Shown one piece after another: positions 1,579-11,191 of a stretch of 11,191 bases of DNA. The position numbers and the translations under genes were made by a program. Origin of the DNA: a virus; the UHGV virus genome UHGV-1786984. One strand, given 5' to 3'. Each line of letters starts with the position of its first letter. Within the stretch, counting starts at the first letter, position 1. Under the pieces are notes generated by a model. That model searched no databases. It was given only the letters and a program-made list of their open reading frames with translations, and was not told where the DNA came from.

Positions 1579-1850
1579 GTATTCGTATTGAAATTGGCGA
1601 ACGTTATGTCGTTACCAGTGACAGCTTTCAGTTTATTCTCCACGAGAAAAAGAGAGCGGAAAGCGGTAAAAACGCCGGTCAGGAATGGCTGGCAGTGGTT
1701 GGTTATTACCCGAAATTAAGCCAGCTCGTTTCCGGCCTGATGCATCACGATATTCTGACCGGAAGCGCAAAATCTTTTGCTGATTTAAACGCGCAGGTTG
1801 AGCAACTCAGCAAGCGTTGTTCAGAGGCTTTTGGCTCACATGGACGTTAA
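1575..1850 (+). CDS. Small early-operon hypothetical protein (P2 orf83-like by position), 91 aa
   Basis: ATG at 1575 with GGAGA upstream. Ends TAA 1848-1850, overlapping the proposed gene A start at 1840. Confidence 0.6.
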   Translation: MSIRIEIGERYVVTSDSFQFILHEKKRAESGKNAGQEWLAVVGYYPKLSQLVSGLMHHDILTGSAKSFADLNAQVEQLSKRCSEAFGSHGR

Positions 1851-4122
1851 AGCCTCCGGGCGTTTTGTCCCTCCGTCAGCATTTGCCGCAGGCACCGGTA
1901 AGACGTTTACCGGTGCTTATGCATGGAACGCGCCACGCGAGGCCGTCGGGCGCGAAAGACCCCTTACACGTGACGAGATGCGTCAGGTGCAAGGTGTTTT
2001 ATCCACGATTAATCGCCTGCCTTACTTTTTGCGCTCGCTGTTTACTTCACGCTATGACTACATCCGGCGCAATAAAAGCCCGGTGCACGGGTTTTATTTC
2101 CTCACATCCACTTTTCAGCGTCGTTTATGGCCGCGCATTGAGCGCGTGAATCAGCGCCATGAAATGAACACCGACGCGTCGTTGCTGTTTCTGGCAGAGC
2201 GTGACCATTATGCGCGTCTGCCGGGGATGAATGATAAGGAGCTGAAAAAGTTTGCCGCCCGTATCTCATCGCAGCTTTTCATGATGTATGAGGAACTCTG
2301 CGATGCATGGGTTGATGCGCATGGTGAAAAAGAATCGCTGTTTACGGATGAGGCGCAGGCTCACCTGTATGGTCATGTTGCTGGCGCTGCACGTGCTTTC
2401 AATATTTCCCCGCTTTACTGGAAAAAATACCGTAAAGGACAGATGACCACGAGGCAGGCATATTCTGCCATTGCCCGCCTGTTTAACGATGAGTGGTGGA
2501 CTCATCAGCTTAAAGGTCAGCGTATGCGCTGGCATGAAGCGTTACTGATTGCTGTCGGGGAGGTCAATAAAGACCGTTCTCCTTATGCCAGTAAACATGC
2601 CATTCGTGATGTGCGTGCGCGCCGCCAGGCAAATCTGGAATTTCTTAAATCGTGTGACCTTGAAAACAGGGAAACCGGCGAGCGCATCGACCTTATCAGT
2701 AAGGTGATGGGCAGTATTTCTAATCCAGAAATTCGCCGGATGGAGCTGATGAACACCATTGCCGGTATTGAGCGTTACGCCGCCGCAGAGGGTGATTTGG
2801 GGATGTTTATCACGCTGACCGCGCCGTCAAAGTATCACCCGACACGTCAGGTCGGAAAAGGCGAAAGTAAAACCGTTCAGCTTAATCACGGCTGGAACGA
2901 TGAGGCATTTAATCCAAAGGATGCGCAGCGTTATCTCTGCCGTATCTGGAGTCTGATGCGCACGGCATTCAAGGATAATGATTTACAGGTCTACGGTTTG
3001 CGTGTCGTCGAGCCACACCACGACGGAACGCCGCACTGGCATATGATGCTTTTTTGTAATCCACGCCAGCGTAATCAGATTATCGAAATCATGCGTCGCT
3101 ATGCGCTCAAAGAGGATGGCGACGAAAGAGGAGCCGCGCGAAACCGTTTTCAGGAAAAACACCTTAACCGGGGCGGTGCTGCGGGGTATATCGCGAAATA
3201 CATCTCAAAAAATATCGACGGCTATGCACTGGATGGGCAGCTCGATAACGATACCGGCAGACCGCTGAAAGATACTGCCGCGGCTGTTACCGCATGGGCG
3301 TCAACGTGGCGCATTCCGCAATTTAAAACGGTTGGCCTGCCGACAATGGGGGCTTACCGTGAACTACGCAAATTGCCTCGCGGCGTCAGCATTGCTGATG
3401 AGTTTGACGAGCGCGTCGAGGCTGCACGCGCCGCCGCAGACAGTGGTGATTTTGCGCTGTATATCAGCGCGCAGGGTGGGGCAAATGTCCCGCGCGATTG
3501 CCAGACTGTCAGGGTTGCCCGTAGCCCGTCGGATGACGTTAACGAGTACGAGGAAGAAGTCGAGAGAGTGGTCGGCATTTACGCGCCGCATCTCGGCGCG
3601 CGTCATATTCATATCACCAGAACGACGGACTGGCGCATTGTTCCGAAAGTGCCGGTCGTTGAGCCTTTGACTTTAAAAAGCGGCATCGCCGCGCCTCGGA
3701 GTCCTGTCAATAACTGTGGAAAGCTCACCAGTGGTGATACTTCGTTACCGGCTCCCACACCTTCTGAACACGCCGCAGCAGTGCTTAATCTGGTTGATGA
3801 CGGTGTTATCGAATGGAATGACCCGGAGGTCGTGAGGGCGCTCAGAGGTGCATTAAAACACGGTCGGAGAACGCCAAATCGTCAGCAAAGAAACGGAAGC
3901 TCGTTAAAACCACATGAAATTGCACCATCGGCCAGACTGGCCCGGTCGGAACGAATGCAAATTACCCGTATCCGCGTTGACCTTGCTCAGAACGGTATCA
4001 GGCCGCAGCGATGGGAGCTTGAGGCGCTGGCGCGTGGTGCGACCGTAGATTACAACGGGAAAAAATTTACGTATCCGGTCGCTGATGAGTGGAGTTGGTT
4101 TTATTGTTATTCAGAGCAATAA
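1840..4122 (+). CDS. A: Rolling-circle replication initiator endonuclease, P2 gpA family (HUH superfamily), ~760 aa
   Basis: Long ORF. HUH-type metal-binding motif in PHWHMMLF and a paired-tyrosine catalytic motif in YIAKYISKNIDGY (phiX174 gpA / P2 gpA class). First ATG is at 1840 (the track ORF starts at an upstream TTG at 1798); from 1840 the length is close to the recalled P2 A length. Ends TAA 4120-4122. Confidence 0.9.
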   Translation: MDVKASGRFVPPSAFAAGTGKTFTGAYAWNAPREAVGRERPLTRDEMRQVQGVLSTINRLPYFLRSLFTSRYDYIRRNKSPVHGFYFLTSTFQRRLWPRIERVNQRHEMNTDASLLFLAERDHYARLPGMNDKELKKFAARISSQLFMMYEELCDAWVDAHGEKESLFTDEAQAHLYGHVAGAARAFNISPLYWKKYRKGQMTTRQAYSAIARLFNDEWWTHQLKGQRMRWHEALLIAVGEVNKDRSPYASKHAIRDVRARRQANLEFLKSCDLENRETGERIDLISKVMGSISNPEIRRMELMNTIAGIERYAAAEGDLGMFITLTAPSKYHPTRQVGKGESKTVQLNHGWNDEAFNPKDAQRYLCRIWSLMRTAFKDNDLQVYGLRVVEPHHDGTPHWHMMLFCNPRQRNQIIEIMRRYALKEDGDERGAARNRFQEKHLNRGGAAGYIAKYISKNIDGYALDGQLDNDTGRPLKDTAAAVTAWASTWRIPQFKTVGLPTMGAYRELRKLPRGVSIADEFDERVEAARAAADSGDFALYISAQGGANVPRDCQTVRVARSPSDDVNEYEEEVERVVGIYAPHLGARHIHITRTTDWRIVPKVPVVEPLTLKSGIAAPRSPVNNCGKLTSGDTSLPAPTPSEHAAAVLNLVDDGVIEWNDPEVVRALRGALKHGRRTPNRQQRNGSSLKPHEIAPSARLARSERMQITRIRVDLAQNGIRPQRWELEALARGATVDYNGKKFTYPVADEWSWFYCYSEQ

Positions 4123-4238
4123 ACATCTGATTTAATTTGTTGCATAATAGTAAAATTGCTGTTTATCTACATGTGTTAACTATTGATAATTATGTTGCTA
4201 ATAATGTGTGCAAATTTATACTGAAAAAGGTGAAAACG
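4123..4238 (+). promoter_or_regulatory. AT-rich intergenic region upstream of the cargo module; likely holds its own promoter and RBS (AAGGTG 4227-4232)
   Basis: Abrupt shift to AT-rich sequence right after the gene A stop, with several -35-like and -10-like hexamers (ttgcat near 4140, gataat 4185-4190, tgctaataat 4196-4205). Exact -35/-10 pairing could not be fixed by eye. Confidence 0.35.
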
Positions 4239-5123
4239 ATGAATGATATCTTTGTTCTTACAAGGGAAGAGCTTGAAACACTAGATTATAGTGTTTTTAT
4301 GCATATACCAGTTACATTTCATGCACATAAAATAAAAAAATATCTGGATGGGATTGCTGAATCATCAGGAAACCCCAAAGAGAAAAAATTAGCATCTCTT
4401 TTTGGTATGCTATATAGTTTCAATTTGCAAGTTGTTAACAACACTCCATCATTTGAACCCCAAATGATTTGGGGTAATAAAAGATCAATATTGTCTGAAG
4501 ATTTTGATGAGCAGGTGAATGACTGTCTTTTATATGTTTCTCAAAAAATAACCAATCCATTTTTGTTATCAAGAATATATGATGTTGTTTGGTGTAATAA
4601 CCGGAAAAACAAAGACGTGGCAATTAAAGCAATTGATTCCTATGCTGAAATGCTAAATATAGCAATTGAAAAACTAATAATAAAAAACGAAAGCATGGAT
4701 GAAAGTGATTTAAATTGCTTTATTTTTGCTCGTGATTATATTGCTAGGGCTTTGCACATTAATAAAATGGTCTACCCTAGAAAATCAGAAGGAAACATGG
4801 CGATTAAAAATGCCATTCATTCTCTTTATAGTATTCAAAATGAAAGATTAATCTTTGAAGGTTTCAATAATTTGACTTGGTTTATGGTGCGTGATTTTGA
4901 TGGGTATAATCTGCAGTATGCGGAAAATGCTGAGAAGATGGCTGAGCAGCATAAAGATAAAAAATATTATGATGCTGTAAAATCACTTTATATGACAAGT
5001 GCAGTTATTTATGAAAAAATGGTGAGTATGAACGTGCCAAGAGATGTAAACTGGCATCTGCAAATATTACTATTAAAGTTGCAACAGATCGACCTGATAA
5101 TATGGGTAAGATCTCTTGGTTAA
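4239..5123 (+). CDS. Cargo gene 1: hypothetical protein of unknown function, 294 aa from first ATG; AT-rich, foreign composition
   Basis: First ATG at 4239 with AAGGTG 6 nt upstream; the track ORF starts at an in-frame TTG at 4137. Codon usage is A/T-rich, unlike flanking phage genes. No motif recognised by eye. Overlaps the next ORF by 22 nt. Confidence 0.7.
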   Translation: MNDIFVLTREELETLDYSVFMHIPVTFHAHKIKKYLDGIAESSGNPKEKKLASLFGMLYSFNLQVVNNTPSFEPQMIWGNKRSILSEDFDEQVNDCLLYVSQKITNPFLLSRIYDVVWCNNRKNKDVAIKAIDSYAEMLNIAIEKLIIKNESMDESDLNCFIFARDYIARALHINKMVYPRKSEGNMAIKNAIHSLYSIQNERLIFEGFNNLTWFMVRDFDGYNLQYAENAEKMAEQHKDKKYYDAVKSLYMTSAVIYEKMVSMNVPRDVNWHLQILLLKLQQIDLIIWVRSLG

Positions 5124-6070
5124 GAACAGCTATCTCTGAATTAAGACAGTATGGTGGTGATAGCCAACAGATAGAAGATTTAAAGGAACAACTTGCTAAT
5201 TTGAGAGAAGAAGTAAGGAGTGAATATGTCACTTTAAGCCATTCTATTGATATTAGTGACTTGGTTGCTGAAAGTGAAAAAAAACTGACGGGGCGTTCTT
5301 TGCCCGATATATTCAAAGTTTTAATGCGTGAAACACCGATTGAAAATATTGAAAGCATGAGGGAGCAAGTTTTAAGATTATCAGAAAAAAGTTTATTCTC
5401 TAGTTTTGTTGGAACAGAAATTAATGATGAGAGTGGGCGTAAGGTATATACAATCCCGCCGTTGAATAATAAAAAAGATATGAGTGATGATGTTGTTATT
5501 GATCAATATCTAAGAAATTTCGAGATTACTCATAAGATTTTTGTAAACGGTGTCTTTGAACCTGCTCGCTATGTACTTTCTCAAGAACATGGCTTGACGT
5601 TGTCAACATTCGTTAAATTAGTTACAACTAGTCCAATTGTCAAGCCGGAGTTTAGGGAGATTTTTAATTTGGGCTTTTACAAATTATGGCAGGGAGATTA
5701 CATCAGTGCAGCTTATCTTTTAATACCACAAATGGAAGGTATGGTTCGTTATTATTATGAGCTTAGTGGAAAGGATGCTACTAGATATTTGGATAAGGGA
5801 TTAGAGGAGTCAACAAGTATTTCTCAGCTTCTAGATAAATGCAGAGATGATTTGGAAAGTATCTTTTCTAAGAATCTTGTTTTAACTATCGATGTTCTTT
5901 TTAATAGAAAGAGTGGGGCAACCTTAAGACATAAATTAGCACATGGTAATTTATATACTAATGCTTGTTACGATGAAACAACGACATATGCATGCATCCT
6001 GATTTTCTTTCTGTGTGCTTATCCTCTCCTACCATATTTTGATACTGTATTTGAACAGGGCTCTGTTTGA
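5102..6070 (+). CDS. Cargo gene 2: hypothetical protein with C-terminal HEPN-like R-x4-H motif (candidate RNase/abortive-infection effector), 322 aa
   Basis: ORF from ATG 5102, in the -1 frame relative to cargo gene 1, no obvious SD. C-terminal ..NRKSGATLRHKLAHGNLY.. has Arg (5927-5929) and His (5942-5944) spaced R-x4-H as in HEPN (Abi_2/AbiD/AbiF-like) domains. Same AT-rich composition. May be a separate gene or the 3' part of a frameshifted single gene. Confidence 0.65.
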   Translation: MGKISWLRTAISELRQYGGDSQQIEDLKEQLANLREEVRSEYVTLSHSIDISDLVAESEKKLTGRSLPDIFKVLMRETPIENIESMREQVLRLSEKSLFSSFVGTEINDESGRKVYTIPPLNNKKDMSDDVVIDQYLRNFEITHKIFVNGVFEPARYVLSQEHGLTLSTFVKLVTTSPIVKPEFREIFNLGFYKLWQGDYISAAYLLIPQMEGMVRYYYELSGKDATRYLDKGLEESTSISQLLDKCRDDLESIFSKNLVLTIDVLFNRKSGATLRHKLAHGNLYTNACYDETTTYACILIFFLCAYPLLPYFDTVFEQGSV

Positions 6071-6221
6071 TAACGTATACGTTGAGGCATAAAACCTATG
6101 CATACTTAGCTGCATCAATTTGCACGAGGTATTTCAGTATGCATTTTCTGCGTAATAGTAGGGATTGCTTGGTTTGGTAGTTGTAATTCAACTGCATTCA
6201 AACCGACCCATGAAGCGGGCG

Positions 6222-6240
6222 GGCGAGGCGGGGAAAGCAC
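6222..6240. other. cos site: 19-nt P2-type cohesive-end sequence GGCGAGGCGGGGAAAGCAC (phage genome ends joined)
   Basis: Exact string ggcgaggcggggaaagcac at 6222-6240, matching the recalled P2 cohesive end. Location between the right-end cargo region and portal gene Q is where P2 cos lies. Confidence 0.7.
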
Positions 6241-6391
6241 TGCGCGCTGGCGGTGGTGCTGATTTTATTTTTTCAGCGTCTCAGCGCGTCGTAATGGCGT
6301 TTAGATTGTGCGCCGGGGCGTTGGTGTGTCTGCGGGCTGTTTTGTGCGGTGGTGAGCGTGTGAGGGCGTGATGACGGGATGTAAAAAAGCC

Positions 6392-6414
6392 TAAAAAAGC
6401 CGCCCGCAGGCGGC
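6392..6414 (-). terminator. Rho-independent terminator of the P-Q late operon
   Basis: On the - strand, 5 nt after the Q stop: GC-rich hairpin GCCGCC-TGCG-GGCGGC (plus 6399-6414) followed by a U-run (plus-strand A-run 6393-6398). Confidence 0.55.
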
Positions 6415-6419
6415 GATGT

Positions 6420-7454
6420 TCAGTCGTTGTCAGTGTCCAGTGAGTAGTTTTTAAAGCGGATGACCTCCTGACCGAGCCAGCCGTTTATCTCGCGGATCCT
6501 GTCCTGTAGCGGGATAAGCTCATTGCGGACAAAGACCTTTGCCACTTTCTCAATATCGCCCAGTGACCCGACGTTCTCCGGCTTGCCACCCATCAACTGA
6601 AAGGGGATGCGGTGTGCGTCCAGCAGGTCAGCGGCGCTGGCTTTTTTGATATTAAAAAAATCGTCCTTCGTCGCCACTTCACTGAGCGGGATAATTTTAA
6701 TGCCGTCGGCTTTCCCCTGCGGGGCATAGAGAAACAGATTTTTAAAGTTATTGCGGCCTTTCGACTTAACCATGTTTTCGCGAAGCATTTCGATATCGTT
6801 GCGATCCTGCACGGCATCGGTGACGTACATGATGTATCCGGCATGTGCGCCATTTTCGTAATACTTGCGGCGGAACAGCGTGGCCGACTCATTCAGCCAG
6901 GCAGAGTTAAGGGCGCTGAGATATTCCGGCAGGCCGTACAGCTCCTGATTAATATCCGGCTCCAGCAGGTGAAACACGGAACCGGGCGTGAAAGGTGTCG
7001 GCTCGTTGAAGGACGGCACCCACCAGTAAACATCCTCTTCCACACCACGGCGGGTATATTTTGCCGGTGAGGTTTCCAGTCTGATGACCTTACCGGTGGT
7101 GCTGTAACGCTTTTCCAGAAACGCATTACCGAACACCAGAAAATCCAGCACAAAGCGGCTGAAATCCTGCTGGGAAAGCCACGGGTGCGGGATAAACGTT
7201 GAAGCCAGAATATTACGTTTGACGTAAATCGGTGAGCTGTGATGCACGGCAGCACGCAGGCTTTTTGCCAGACCGGTAAAGCTGACCGGCGGCTCATACC
7301 ATCTGCCGTTACTGATGCATTCGACGTAATCCAGAATGTCACGGCGGTCGAGTACCGGCACCGGCTCACCAAAGGTGAATGCCTCCATTTTCGGGGCGCT
7401 GGCAGTCATTGTTTTTGCCGCAGGTTGCGGTGTTTTCCCTTTTTTCTTGCTCAT
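6420..7454 (-). CDS. Q: Portal protein, P2 gpQ family, 344 aa
   Basis: 344-aa ORF on - strand (MSKKKGKTPQPAAK...), matching recalled P2 Q length and its position next to cos. Start ATG (7452-7454) overlaps the P stop by 1 nt (TGATG). Confidence 0.9.
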   Translation of the reverse strand: MSKKKGKTPQPAAKTMTASAPKMEAFTFGEPVPVLDRRDILDYVECISNGRWYEPPVSFTGLAKSLRAAVHHSSPIYVKRNILASTFIPHPWLSQQDFSRFVLDFLVFGNAFLEKRYSTTGKVIRLETSPAKYTRRGVEEDVYWWVPSFNEPTPFTPGSVFHLLEPDINQELYGLPEYLSALNSAWLNESATLFRRKYYENGAHAGYIMYVTDAVQDRNDIEMLRENMVKSKGRNNFKNLFLYAPQGKADGIKIIPLSEVATKDDFFNIKKASAADLLDAHRIPFQLMGGKPENVGSLGDIEKVAKVFVRNELIPLQDRIREINGWLGQEVIRFKNYSLDTDND

Positions 7455-9399: not shown

Positions 9400-10149
9400 A
9401 TGGCAAAAAAAGTCTCAAAATTCTTTCGTATCGGCGTTGAGGGTGACACCTGTGACGGGCGTGTCATCAGTGCGCAGGATATTCAGGAAATGGCCGAAAC
9501 CTTTGACCCGCGAGTCTATGGTTGCCGCATTAACCTGGAACATCTGCGCGGCATCCTGCCTGACGGTATTTTTAAACGTTATGGCGATGTGGCCGAACTG
9601 AAGGCCGAAAAGATTGATGACGATTCGGCGCTGAAAGGCAAATGGGCGCTGTTTGCGAAAATCACCCCGACCGATGACCTTATCGCGATGAACAAGGCCG
9701 CGCAGAAGGTCTACACCTCAATGGAAATTCAGCCGAACTTTGCCAACACCGGCAAATGTTATCTGGTGGGGCTGGCCGTCACCGATGACCCGGCAAGCCT
9801 CGGCACGGAATACCTGGAATTCTGCCGCACGGCAAAACACAACCCCCTGAACCGCTTCAAATTAAGCCCTGAAAACCTGATTTCAGTGGCAACGCCTGTT
9901 GAGCTGGAATTTGAAGACCTGCCTGAAACCGTGTTCACCGCCCTGACCGAAAAGGTGAAATCCATTTTTGGCCGCAAACAGGCCAGCGATGACGCCCGTC
10001 TGAATGACGTGCATGAAGCGGTGACCGCTGTTGCTGAACATGTGCAGGAAAAGCTGAGTGCCACTGAGCAGCGCCTCGCTGAGATGGAAACCGCCTTTTC
10101 CGCACTTAAGCAGGAGGTGACTGACAGGGCGGATATGACGAACTGCTGA
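9400..10149 (+). CDS. O: Capsid scaffolding protein, P2 gpO family, 249 aa from ATG 9400
   Basis: ATG 9400 (MAKKVSKFFRIGVEGDT...) with AGGA at 9387-9390. The track ORF starts at the upstream in-frame ATG 9334, which has no spacer after its SD-like sequence. Position between P and N fits P2 order. Ends TGA 10147-10149. Confidence 0.8.
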   Translation: MAKKVSKFFRIGVEGDTCDGRVISAQDIQEMAETFDPRVYGCRINLEHLRGILPDGIFKRYGDVAELKAEKIDDDSALKGKWALFAKITPTDDLIAMNKAAQKVYTSMEIQPNFANTGKCYLVGLAVTDDPASLGTEYLEFCRTAKHNPLNRFKLSPENLISVATPVELEFEDLPETVFTALTEKVKSIFGRKQASDDARLNDVHEAVTAVAEHVQEKLSATEQRLAEMETAFSALKQEVTDRADMTNC

Positions 10150-10207
10150 CCGGCGTCAGTCAGTCCGGGAAAACCTTCACGATTAACCCTTAATTTCAGG
10201 AAAAACT

Positions 10208-11191
10208 ATGCGCCAGGAAACCCGCTTTAAATTTAATGCCTACCTGTCCCGTGTTGCCGAGCTGAACGGCATCGACGCCGGTGATGTGTCGAAAAAATTC
10301 ACCGTTGAACCGTCGGTCACCCAGACCCTGATGAACACCATGCAGGAGTCCTCTGACTTTCTGACCCGCATCAACATTGTGCCGGTCAGCGAAATGAAAG
10401 GGGAAAAAATTGGTATCGGTGTCACCGGCTCCATCGCCAGCACCACCGACACCGCCGGTGGCACCGAGCGTCAGCCGAAGGACTTCTCGAAGCTGGCGTC
10501 CAGTAAGTACGAATGCGACCAGATTAACTTCGATTTTTATATCCGCTACAAAACGCTTGACCTGTGGGCGCGTTATCAGGATTTCGAATGCGACCAGATT
10601 AACTTCGATTTTTATATCCGCTACAAAACGCTGGACCTGTGGGCGCGTTATCAGGATTTCCAGCTCCGTGTCCGTAACGCCATTATCAAACGCCAGTCCC
10701 TTGATTTAATCATGGCCGGTTTTAACGGCGTGAAGCGTGCCGAAACCTCTGACCGCAGCAGCAATCCGATGCTGCAGGATGTGGCGGTCGGCTGGCTGCA
10801 GAAATACCGCAATGAAGCCCCGGCGCGCGTGATGAGCAAGGTCACTGACGAGGAAGGCCGCACCACCTCTGAGGTTATCCGCGTGGGTAAGGGCGGTGAT
10901 TATGCCAGCCTTGATGCACTGGTGATGGATGCGACCAACAACCTGATTGAACCGTGGTATCAGGAAGACCCTGACCTTGTGGTGATTGTGGGGCGTCAGT
11001 TACTGGCGGACAAGTATTTCCCCATCGTCAACAAGGAGCAGGACAACAGCGAGATGCTGGCCGCTGACGTCATCATCAGCCAGAAACGCATCGGCAACCT
11101 GCCAGCGGTACGCGTCCCGTACTTCCCGGCGGATGCGATGCTCATCACGAAGCTGGAAAACCTGTCCATCTACTACATGGATGACAGCCAT
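10208..11191 (+). CDS. N: Major capsid protein, P2 gpN family; 5' partial (328 codons, runs off the window end)
   Basis: ATG 10208 with CAGGA upstream; frame open to the last base of the window (MRQETRFKFNAYLSRVAELNG...YYMDDSH). Absent from the ORF track because no stop lies in the window. Follows O as in P2. Confidence 0.85.
   Translation, partial: MRQETRFKFNAYLSRVAELNGIDAGDVSKKFTVEPSVTQTLMNTMQESSDFLTRINIVPVSEMKGEKIGIGVTGSIASTTDTAGGTERQPKDFSKLASSKYECDQINFDFYIRYKTLDLWARYQDFECDQINFDFYIRYKTLDLWARYQDFQLRVRNAIIKRQSLDLIMAGFNGVKRAETSDRSSNPMLQDVAVGWLQKYRNEAPARVMSKVTDEEGRTTSEVIRVGKGGDYASLDALVMDATNNLIEPWYQEDPDLVVIVGRQLLADKYFPIVNKEQDNSEMLAADVIISQKRIGNLPAVRVPYFPADAMLITKLENLSIYYMDDSH
10511..10660 (+). 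repeat. In-frame 75-bp tandem duplication inside gene N (2 copies, 1 synonymous mismatch), duplicating ECDQINFDFYIRYKTLDLWARYQDF
   Basis: Read directly: gaatgcgaccagattaacttcgatttttatatccgctacaaaacgct[t/g]gacctgtgggcgcgttatcaggatttc occurs twice head-to-tail (10511-10585, 10586-10660). 75 = 25 codons, in frame with N. Confidence 0.9.

Follow-up and report, generated by a model that had tools for sequence, protein, structure and literature searches.

An AT-rich insert in the P2 gene A-cos hotspot

UHGV virus genome UHGV-1786984 was analyzed as one stretch of 11,191 nt (referred to as a whole as the window), with the focus on an AT-rich insert that directly follows a P2-type replication gene A. 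The original prediction, made from the letters alone, had described this insert (4123-6100) as a cargo module of two genes belonging to no assignable named system. As set out below, the insert holds one gene, and this is very probably a frameshifted copy of a single PDC-S39-family HEPN gene, carried as P2 cargo and inactivated here.

GC content over 4123-6100 was 0.328, compared to 0.528 in the remainder of the window, and the next-lowest value among the other 1,978-nt windows of the stretch was at least 0.466. When GC content was followed in 50-nt windows, it fell at ~4100 and rose again at ~6175-6200, placing the left edge of the island at the stop codon of gene A (4120-4122) and the right edge just 5' of cos. 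The proposed sliding-window check thus confirmed a compositional shift after gene A, while the right edge had to be moved a little further out, from 6100 to ~6200; the unstranded island, with a GC content of ~0.33, is taken here as 4100-6200.

The left border of the slot is gene A for the replication endonuclease (1840-4122, plus strand), which tblastn aligned to all 760 aa of the gpA of Escherichia coli MS7163 at 98.3% identity. The right border is the 19-nt cohesive-end sequence of P2 cos (6222-6240, plus strand), identical to cosR as annotated in phage P2 (AF063097), a match with a chance expectation of 0 in the stretch, followed by the intact portal gene gpQ (6420-7454, minus strand; 344 aa aligned at 99.4% identity). 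Compared with P2-like prophages of E. coli, the backbone genes show 98-100% identity. Hotspot cargo in the sense of Rousset et al. (2022) is a variable insert that a P2-like prophage carries next to cos, between its gpA and gpQ genes, and for these authors the gpA-gpQ region is an established defence hotspot; with gpA, an exact cos and gpQ flanking the island, the original placement in the P2 gene A-cos hotspot was correct. The gene is horizontally acquired, AT-rich cargo in this variable slot. It shares the gene A-cos locus, a low GC content and the status of non-essential lysogenic-conversion cargo with old and tin of P2. In contrast, old and tin encode unrelated proteins (Old is an ATPase-TOPRIM nuclease), lie on the opposite strand with a promoter next to cos, and have exclusion phenotypes that were proven experimentally.

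One gene split by the loss of a single base

Two overlapping ORFs (open reading frames) are present in the island, as predicted, with ORF1 encoding 294 aa from an ATG at 4239 (4239-5123) and ORF2 encoding 322 aa (5102-6070) in a 22-nt overlap; these and all other features of the cargo gene lie on the plus strand. They are not separate genes, however, but halves of one 610-aa gene at 4239-6070, which is broken at a run of six A's (A6, 5014-5019) where all intact alleles have seven (A7). Insertion of one A into this run fuses the two frames. The region was assigned to a single gene because the resulting 610-aa protein matches the PDC-S39 profiles over nearly their full length, because ORF1 and ORF2 map to two parts of one PHROG, and because the annotations of E. 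coli MS7163 and S88 give a single 610-aa coding sequence (WP_000997854.1) for DNA that is 99.9% identical. On the 612 positions of that PHROG profile (phrog_5183), ORF1 matches positions 3-263 and ORF2 positions 291-612, the match of ORF1 stopping at its residue 261. Across 4100-6200, the window differs from MS7163 and S88 at exactly two sites, T4494 (T4494C, giving Ser86 here and Pro86 there) and the A missing from A7, and the repaired protein differs from WP_000997854.1 in one residue (S86 vs P86).

The 5' part of the gene (4239-5018, codons 1-260) encodes a DUF7380 and helical-repeat scaffold and contains the derived change at codon 86 (4494-4496; TCT for Ser here, CCT for Pro in relatives), which is linked to the frameshift. 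Past the A6 run, ORF1 continues out of frame for 34 unrelated residues and a stop (5019-5123), while the 3' part (5018-6070) carries codons 261-610 and the stop in the -1 frame, where tblastn aligned residues 260-610 in frame 2 at 100% identity. This frame is open already from 5018, right after the A6 run, and reads KNGEYERAKRC...; ORF2 is its ATG-initiated subset. Among the backbone and cargo genes of the window, the cargo gene alone was split over two frames in the tblastn comparison.

That ORF1 and ORF2 might nevertheless form a functional two-gene module of co-expressed subunits, with ORF1 as a sensor or antitoxin-like protein and ORF2 as the HEPN effector, has been largely refuted and is barely credible. 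The overlapping ORFs do exist, the split comes close to the junction of the N-terminal scaffold with the C-terminal half, and a few family matches of ~370-420 aa cover profile positions ~250-606, which suggests that short forms might exist. Against this, the two-gene arrangement occurs in no relative, and the two ORFs are halves of one PHROG and of one PADLOC profile rather than a toxin-antitoxin or abortive-infection pair. The break lies within an invariant block, between K and N of IYEKNG, and not in a linker; ORF1 ends with its out-of-frame tail, ORF2 starts 29 residues beyond the break without a Shine-Dalgarno sequence, and a single homopolymer base separates the split gene from the intact one.

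The intergenic leader (4123-4238) provides the ATG at 4239 with a good ribosome-binding site (AAGGTG, 4227-4232). It also contains candidate promoters, which did not rise above chance: the scan of the AT-rich island returned 13 sigma-70-like matches compared to 10 ± 3 expected, and the putative promoter originally assigned to the module could not be confirmed. For overlapping ORF pairs in AT-rich cargo in general, a check for a homopolymer frameshift is advisable before a multi-gene call is made.

The gene is intact and widespread among relatives

This DNA is carried by 55 complete E. coli genomes (~1% of 5,426), all of which are annotated with a single protein and in which the corresponding span measures 2,102-2,106 nt, compared to 2,101 nt here. 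Seven IMG/VR contigs also carry it, all coding one uninterrupted ~610-aa protein, and the 20 full-length homologue clusters (48-100% identity) are all 606-632 aa long. A profile search of 1.8 billion representatives produced 3,358 clusters at E ≤ 1e-3, of which 614 reached E ≤ 1e-30; among the deep matches listed, nearly all were ~600-640 aa and matched in one stretch, as did all 21 homologue clusters of 48-100% identity. A scan of genome contigs with the close-relative alignment found no relatives. A pattern could not be designed from the highly diverse 80-sequence alignment as a whole, but a subset of 27 sequences sharing PQLENSLR allowed it, and the gene was found uninterrupted in 37 of 38 loci from distant genera (spanning Yersinia, Pseudomonas, Sphingomonas, Rhizobiales, Rhodobacterales and cyanobacteria). 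PDC-S39 calls for one intact ORF, which relatives possess and which is split after codon 260 here. The intact alleles, with 13 synonymous and 11 nonsynonymous changes (pN/pS = 0.21), show the sequence signature of purifying selection.

Five of the deep matches (P0095, P0111, P0122, P0130 and P0137) are ~370-410 aa long, cover only profile positions ~250-606 and lack DUF7380. Truncated gene calls are one possible explanation and natural short forms another; the latter would make the N-terminal domain dispensable in some lineages. Separately, the MS7163/S88 prophage is itself defective, its integrase being annotated as frameshifted and its capsid gene truncated beside ISEc12; the cargo gene is nonetheless intact.

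The single-gene arrangement in the gpA-gpQ slot was also found for orthologues in Klebsiella variicola (64% identity) and in a 186-like prophage of Kosakonia cowanii (54% identity). Around the more distant relatives, neighbors were scanned crudely (the closest two ORFs upstream and downstream, 145 in total, assessed qualitatively without a background model), and no conserved partner gene emerged among these 145 ORFs. The neighbors included resolvases, integrases and recombinases as well as defence genes, namely IetA/IetS, a Type IIG restriction-modification (R-M) enzyme, AbiEii, a KAP NTPase with a PIN protein, a Schlafen-type helicase and capP/TRIP13. These defence neighbors agree with the origin of the PDC models, which were built from genes found inside BREX, DISARM or Type I R-M loci.

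Domain architecture and conserved residues

The repaired protein matched both hidden Markov models (HMMs) of PDC-S39, PDLC05011 with E = 1.8e-84 (residues 40-598 on profile positions 44-583 of 595) and PDLC05012 with E = 1.3e-82 (residues 7-596 on 8-599 of 615), which amounts to the full-length match that PADLOC requires of this family. In Pfam, DUF7380 (PF24098) was matched by residues 4-184 with 133.4 bits (E = 1e-38), well above its 27-bit gathering cutoff, and by all 20 homologues. DUF4209 (PF13910) was matched by residues 524-590 with 19.5 bits (E = 1.1e-3) and by 10 of the 20 homologues (best E = 6e-4), in every case under the 22.3-bit cutoff. The protein is not filed as a formal PF13910 member because its score falls under this curated cutoff; other annotators label it DUF4209. 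Running the HMM and structure-based searches that had been proposed identified the family without formal DUF4209 membership, and the earlier statement that neither ORF could be assigned to a named system did not survive the matches to PDC-S39, DUF7380 and system #13 of Rousset et al. (2022). The NCBIfam search gave no match to the cargo protein, Rfam at gathering thresholds gave nothing in the window, and a profile search of PDB sequences returned no relative, its best hit (E = 0.36) being coiled-coil noise.

The N-terminal ~400 residues, comprising DUF7380 and helical hairpins, are assigned to a TPR/SNAP-like alpha-solenoid. The C-terminal ~200 residues (~407-610; 5456-6067) are predicted to form a HEPN-like domain of the DUF4209/C6orf70 type, and a model of this domain retrieved Csm6, AF0298, AbiA, HI0074, Roquin, a HEPN toxin and LsoA. 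The HEPN-like motif noted earlier near the end of ORF2 is RHKLAH (R564 to H569; 5927-5944), which fits the R-x4-6-H motif of HEPN domains as an R-x4-H dyad and is 100% invariant in the family. Alignments point to a putative part of the active site in the LIPQxExxxR helix, with E500 and R504 (5735-5749). Across 133 representatives with a median identity of 23%, E500, R564 and H569 were 100% invariant and R504 was 99% conserved, and the invariant set in the 80-sequence alignment consisted of R170, E500, R504, R564 and H569. Such a pattern of invariance is expected of a catalytically active HEPN nuclease. The last helix, YACILIFFLCAYPLLPYF (5978-6040, residues ~580-601), is very hydrophobic. It is listed with one transmembrane (TM) segment by Phobius in Table S5B of Rousset et al. 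(2022), while in the AlphaFold model it forms a long and fairly confident helix of the C-terminal domain; a single TM region has also been described for eukaryotic C6orf70.

Comparison with the C6orf70/DUF4209 HEPN family, predicted to be an active HEPN family with bacterial members in R-M-related operons (Anantharaman et al. 2013), shows the invariant R-x4-H, the conserved E and R upstream of it, an all-alpha C-terminal domain model that retrieves HEPN structures and bacterial members in R-M or defence contexts as common features. In contrast to that family, the protein scores under the Pfam cutoff, its ribonuclease (RNase) activity is a prediction, and it carries the large N-terminal DUF7380 helical-repeat region, which lies outside the description of the eukaryotic family.

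The A6 allele is most likely a rare inactivated haplotype

Besides the window, the A6 allele was found in the assemblies ERZ28657805 and ERZ1689454, which come from different samples; each has a metagenome contig in ENA with a gene call for the exact 322-aa ORF2 product. One of these contigs matches window positions 3928-6102 at 100% identity; the other matches over 5.6 kb at 99.4% identity, rising to 100% across 4040-6240. A6 and T4494 occur together only in these three sequences, while ten others have A7 and C4494. As A6 is linked to a single-nucleotide polymorphism 520 nt away, it more likely represents a single inherited haplotype than repeated miscalls. The exact A6 pattern was absent from IMG/VR contigs (0, compared to 7 with A7), from JGI metagenome contigs (0) and from the complete E. 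coli genomes carrying this DNA (0 of 55).

The haplotype carries two potentially damaging changes, the frameshift and P86S, Pro86 being kept by at least 90% of the 20 aligned homologues. As the shift follows codon 260 in an invariant block and is joined by P86S at a near-invariant proline, the sequence indicates that the A6 allele is most likely a rare inactivated (pseudogene) allele. Its products would be an N-terminal fragment of 294 aa, the last 34 residues of which are nonsense, and at most some of a 322-aa C-terminal fragment from ORF2, initiated poorly if at all. Given the position of the ORF2 start, 29 residues past the break, and its missing Shine-Dalgarno sequence, production of the HEPN half at a useful level is improbable. 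The copy is accordingly best annotated as a DUF7380/HEPN pseudogene with a frameshift.

A technical origin, in which the source has A7 and an intact gene and the missing base is a homopolymer miscall, is improbable. Homopolymer indels are a classic type of error, and another sequence of the same gene (IMGVR_UViG_2531839178_000021) has two single-base gaps in A-rich stretches, at the equivalents of window positions 4334 and 4682, 348 nt apart; indels of this kind recur in this AT-rich gene and may be either real mutations or sequencing errors. Larger anomalies elsewhere in the window (tandem duplications of 127 nt and 75 nt and the loss of 105 nt, described below), absent from the best complete genomes, cast doubt on the assembly as well. 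Yet A6 was recovered in three assemblies from different samples, perfectly linked to T4494, a base that no A7 sequence carries, and identical independent miscalls confined to one haplotype are unlikely.

The remaining account of A6 as a working state, by phase variation or by a programmed -1 frameshift that limits a toxic HEPN effector, has a very slender chance of being correct. A -1 slip of tRNA-Lys on GAA-AAA-A would restore exactly the wild-type ...YEKNG..., homopolymer tracts mutate reversibly, and an OFF state could benefit costly abortive-infection genes. However, the other alleles have A7 in frame and orthologues read ...YEKNG... in one frame, meaning that the shift is not conserved as a programmed frameshift would be. 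A run of six or seven A's is short by the standards of efficiently slipping or phase-variable tracts, and a -1 slip on six A's is expected to be inefficient. The absence of A6 from the complete genomes and from IMG/VR and JGI metagenome contigs also counts against a switch, and the linked P86S fits decay better than switching.

The anomalies outside the cargo gene are as follows. A 127-nt tandem duplication (2.0 copies, 96% identical) lies at 133-385, from the end of orf78 to the start of replication gene B, and leaves a 41-residue duplicate of the B N-terminus upstream of an intact gene B (264-761), a feature that the prophage of MS7163 and S88 lacks. Either the duplication is real or it arose during assembly; assemblers often use a k-mer length of 127. 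The major capsid gene gpN contains a 75-nt (25-codon, in-frame) tandem duplication at 10510-10660, which repeats ECDQINFDFYIRYKTLDLWARYQDF and is absent from the best-matching complete E. coli genomes, where 216 nt are spanned for a 291-nt query. In gpO (9400-10152), a 105-nt in-frame deletion at ~10134-10135, between ...VTDRAD and MTNC*, leaves the capsid scaffold protein 35 residues shorter near its C-terminus than the 284-aa protein of MS7163. Together, the gpO deletion, the gpN duplication and the cargo frameshift suggest either a decaying prophage or a poor or imperfect assembly. Finally, a 68-aa ORF at 6165-6371 (plus strand) runs across cos. The annotation of phage vB_EcoM-569R9 lists its counterpart as a hypothetical protein, RefSeq E. 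coli genomes leave it unannotated, and the ORF is probably a spurious call in GC-rich DNA.

Candidate function of the intact protein

The cargo gene was already known as an unvalidated candidate, being represented in PADLOC, Pfam, PHROGs and the P2-hotspot survey of Rousset et al. (2022). In Table S5B of that survey the protein is system #13, with the Pfam label 'DUF4209' and 193 occurrences among 18,150 loci, and in Table S2B it is pFR103, a one-gene 'Putative HEPN' from the P2 locus of E. coli S88. The cloned fragment of pFR103 corresponds to window positions ~4039-6440, encodes WP_000997854.1 and, as a native-promoter clone, includes the leader at 4123-4238. The copy in the window agrees with PDC-S39 and pFR103 in its HMM match, its 99.9% DNA identity to S88 and MS7163, its position in the gpA-cos slot, its single-gene architecture and its R-x4-H motif, and differs from them by the A7 to A6 deletion and P86S. 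A second, different 'DUF4209' protein of the P2 hotspot, which starts MSEFDVFSISVDD..., is listed as system #55 with 76 occurrences in Table S5B, and this HEPN type thus occurs as P2 cargo in no fewer than two lineages.

For the intact protein, an auto-inhibited RNase with a role in abortive infection was considered most likely by analogy with single-protein HEPN defences such as HEC-08, and the chances of this being correct are about even. In this model, the helical-repeat domain would sense a phage or phage-derived cue, which would release or dimerize the HEPN domain; the ensuing RNA cleavage would arrest the infected cell and abort the infection. The support for this role is contextual. HEC-08 (DUF3644 HEPN with zinc ribbons) likewise combines a HEPN effector and a non-catalytic recognition region in one polypeptide, and its catalytic R-x4-6-H is needed for defence, which is abolished by mutation of the motif histidine. 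Other HEPN effectors to compare are AbiA (with a C-terminal HEPN domain), Csm6 and LsoA/RnlA, and similarity at the level of the fold extends to AbiA, Csm6 and LsoA. Unlike PDC-S39, which is a candidate defence only, these proteins belong to other HEPN subfamilies with other partner domains, and sequence homology to them was detectable only in the motif. The abortive-infection or exclusion role first proposed for the module is therefore still the most plausible one for the family, whereas the copy in the window is frameshifted and probably non-functional.

One result weighs against a defensive role. Cloning of the insert with its native promoter and challenge with a phage panel, as the original prediction had called for, was already done in 2022 on the S88 allele (pFR103), using lambda, T4, P1, 186cIts, CLB_P2, LF82_P8, AL505_P2 and T7 in MG1655. 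Validated systems were placed in Table S2A and 'additional tested systems' in Table S2B; three of the eight additional P2-hotspot systems in the test proved active, and the PDC-S39 protein was not one of the three (Rousset et al. 2022). The intact, 99.9%-identical allele is thus listed with the non-validated systems and has no reported protection, as inferred from its placement in the tables; no statement on the individual system was found. With a panel as small as theirs, the authors caution, active systems are undercounted (Rousset et al. 2022). The 145 PDC candidates were described as untested by the PADLOC authors, and literature searches found PDC-S39 only in lists of PADLOC predictions, with no validation, no report of RNase biochemistry for the family, and nothing for DUF7380 or WP_000997854.

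It is unlikely, though a serious consideration, that the intact family is not anti-phage at all and instead comprises HEPN proteins of RNA processing or regulation, or selfish toxins or addiction factors, which prophages would carry as cargo for purposes such as lysogenic conversion or their own maintenance. The lack of reported protection against eight phages would fit such a role, as would the non-defence cargo of the P2 hotspot (such as partition systems and cytolethal distending toxin) and the prediction that eukaryotic DUF4209 (C6orf70) acts in endoplasmic reticulum-associated RNA degradation and not in immunity (Anantharaman et al. 2013). However, the family appears in two independent defence contexts, the P2 hotspot and BREX, DISARM or R-M loci, its distant neighbors include Iet, Type IIG R-M, AbiE, a KAP NTPase with PIN and CBASS-associated genes, and HEC-08, whose histidine mutant loses defence, sets a precedent for defence by a single HEPN protein. 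Small phage panels, moreover, miss many real systems.

A more elaborate reading, in which the intact protein is a narrow-spectrum, single-protein abortive-infection RNase with a TPR-like sensor joined to a DUF4209-type HEPN domain, the prokaryotic counterpart of eukaryotic C6orf70/ERMARD, and A6 is a reversible or leaky low-expression state, is very improbable. If it were true, an A6/A7 switch or -1 slippage of tRNA-Lys would let the prophage carry a costly effector silently.

Overall, the copy in the window is an ordinary and probably dead copy of a known candidate, and its value is mainly corrective. The PDC-S39 family is widely distributed, with more than 3,000 clusters at 50% identity, and stands as an untested-to-negative candidate with an invariant E...R...R-x4-H site, which makes it a reasonable target by virtue of a property of the family and not of this window.

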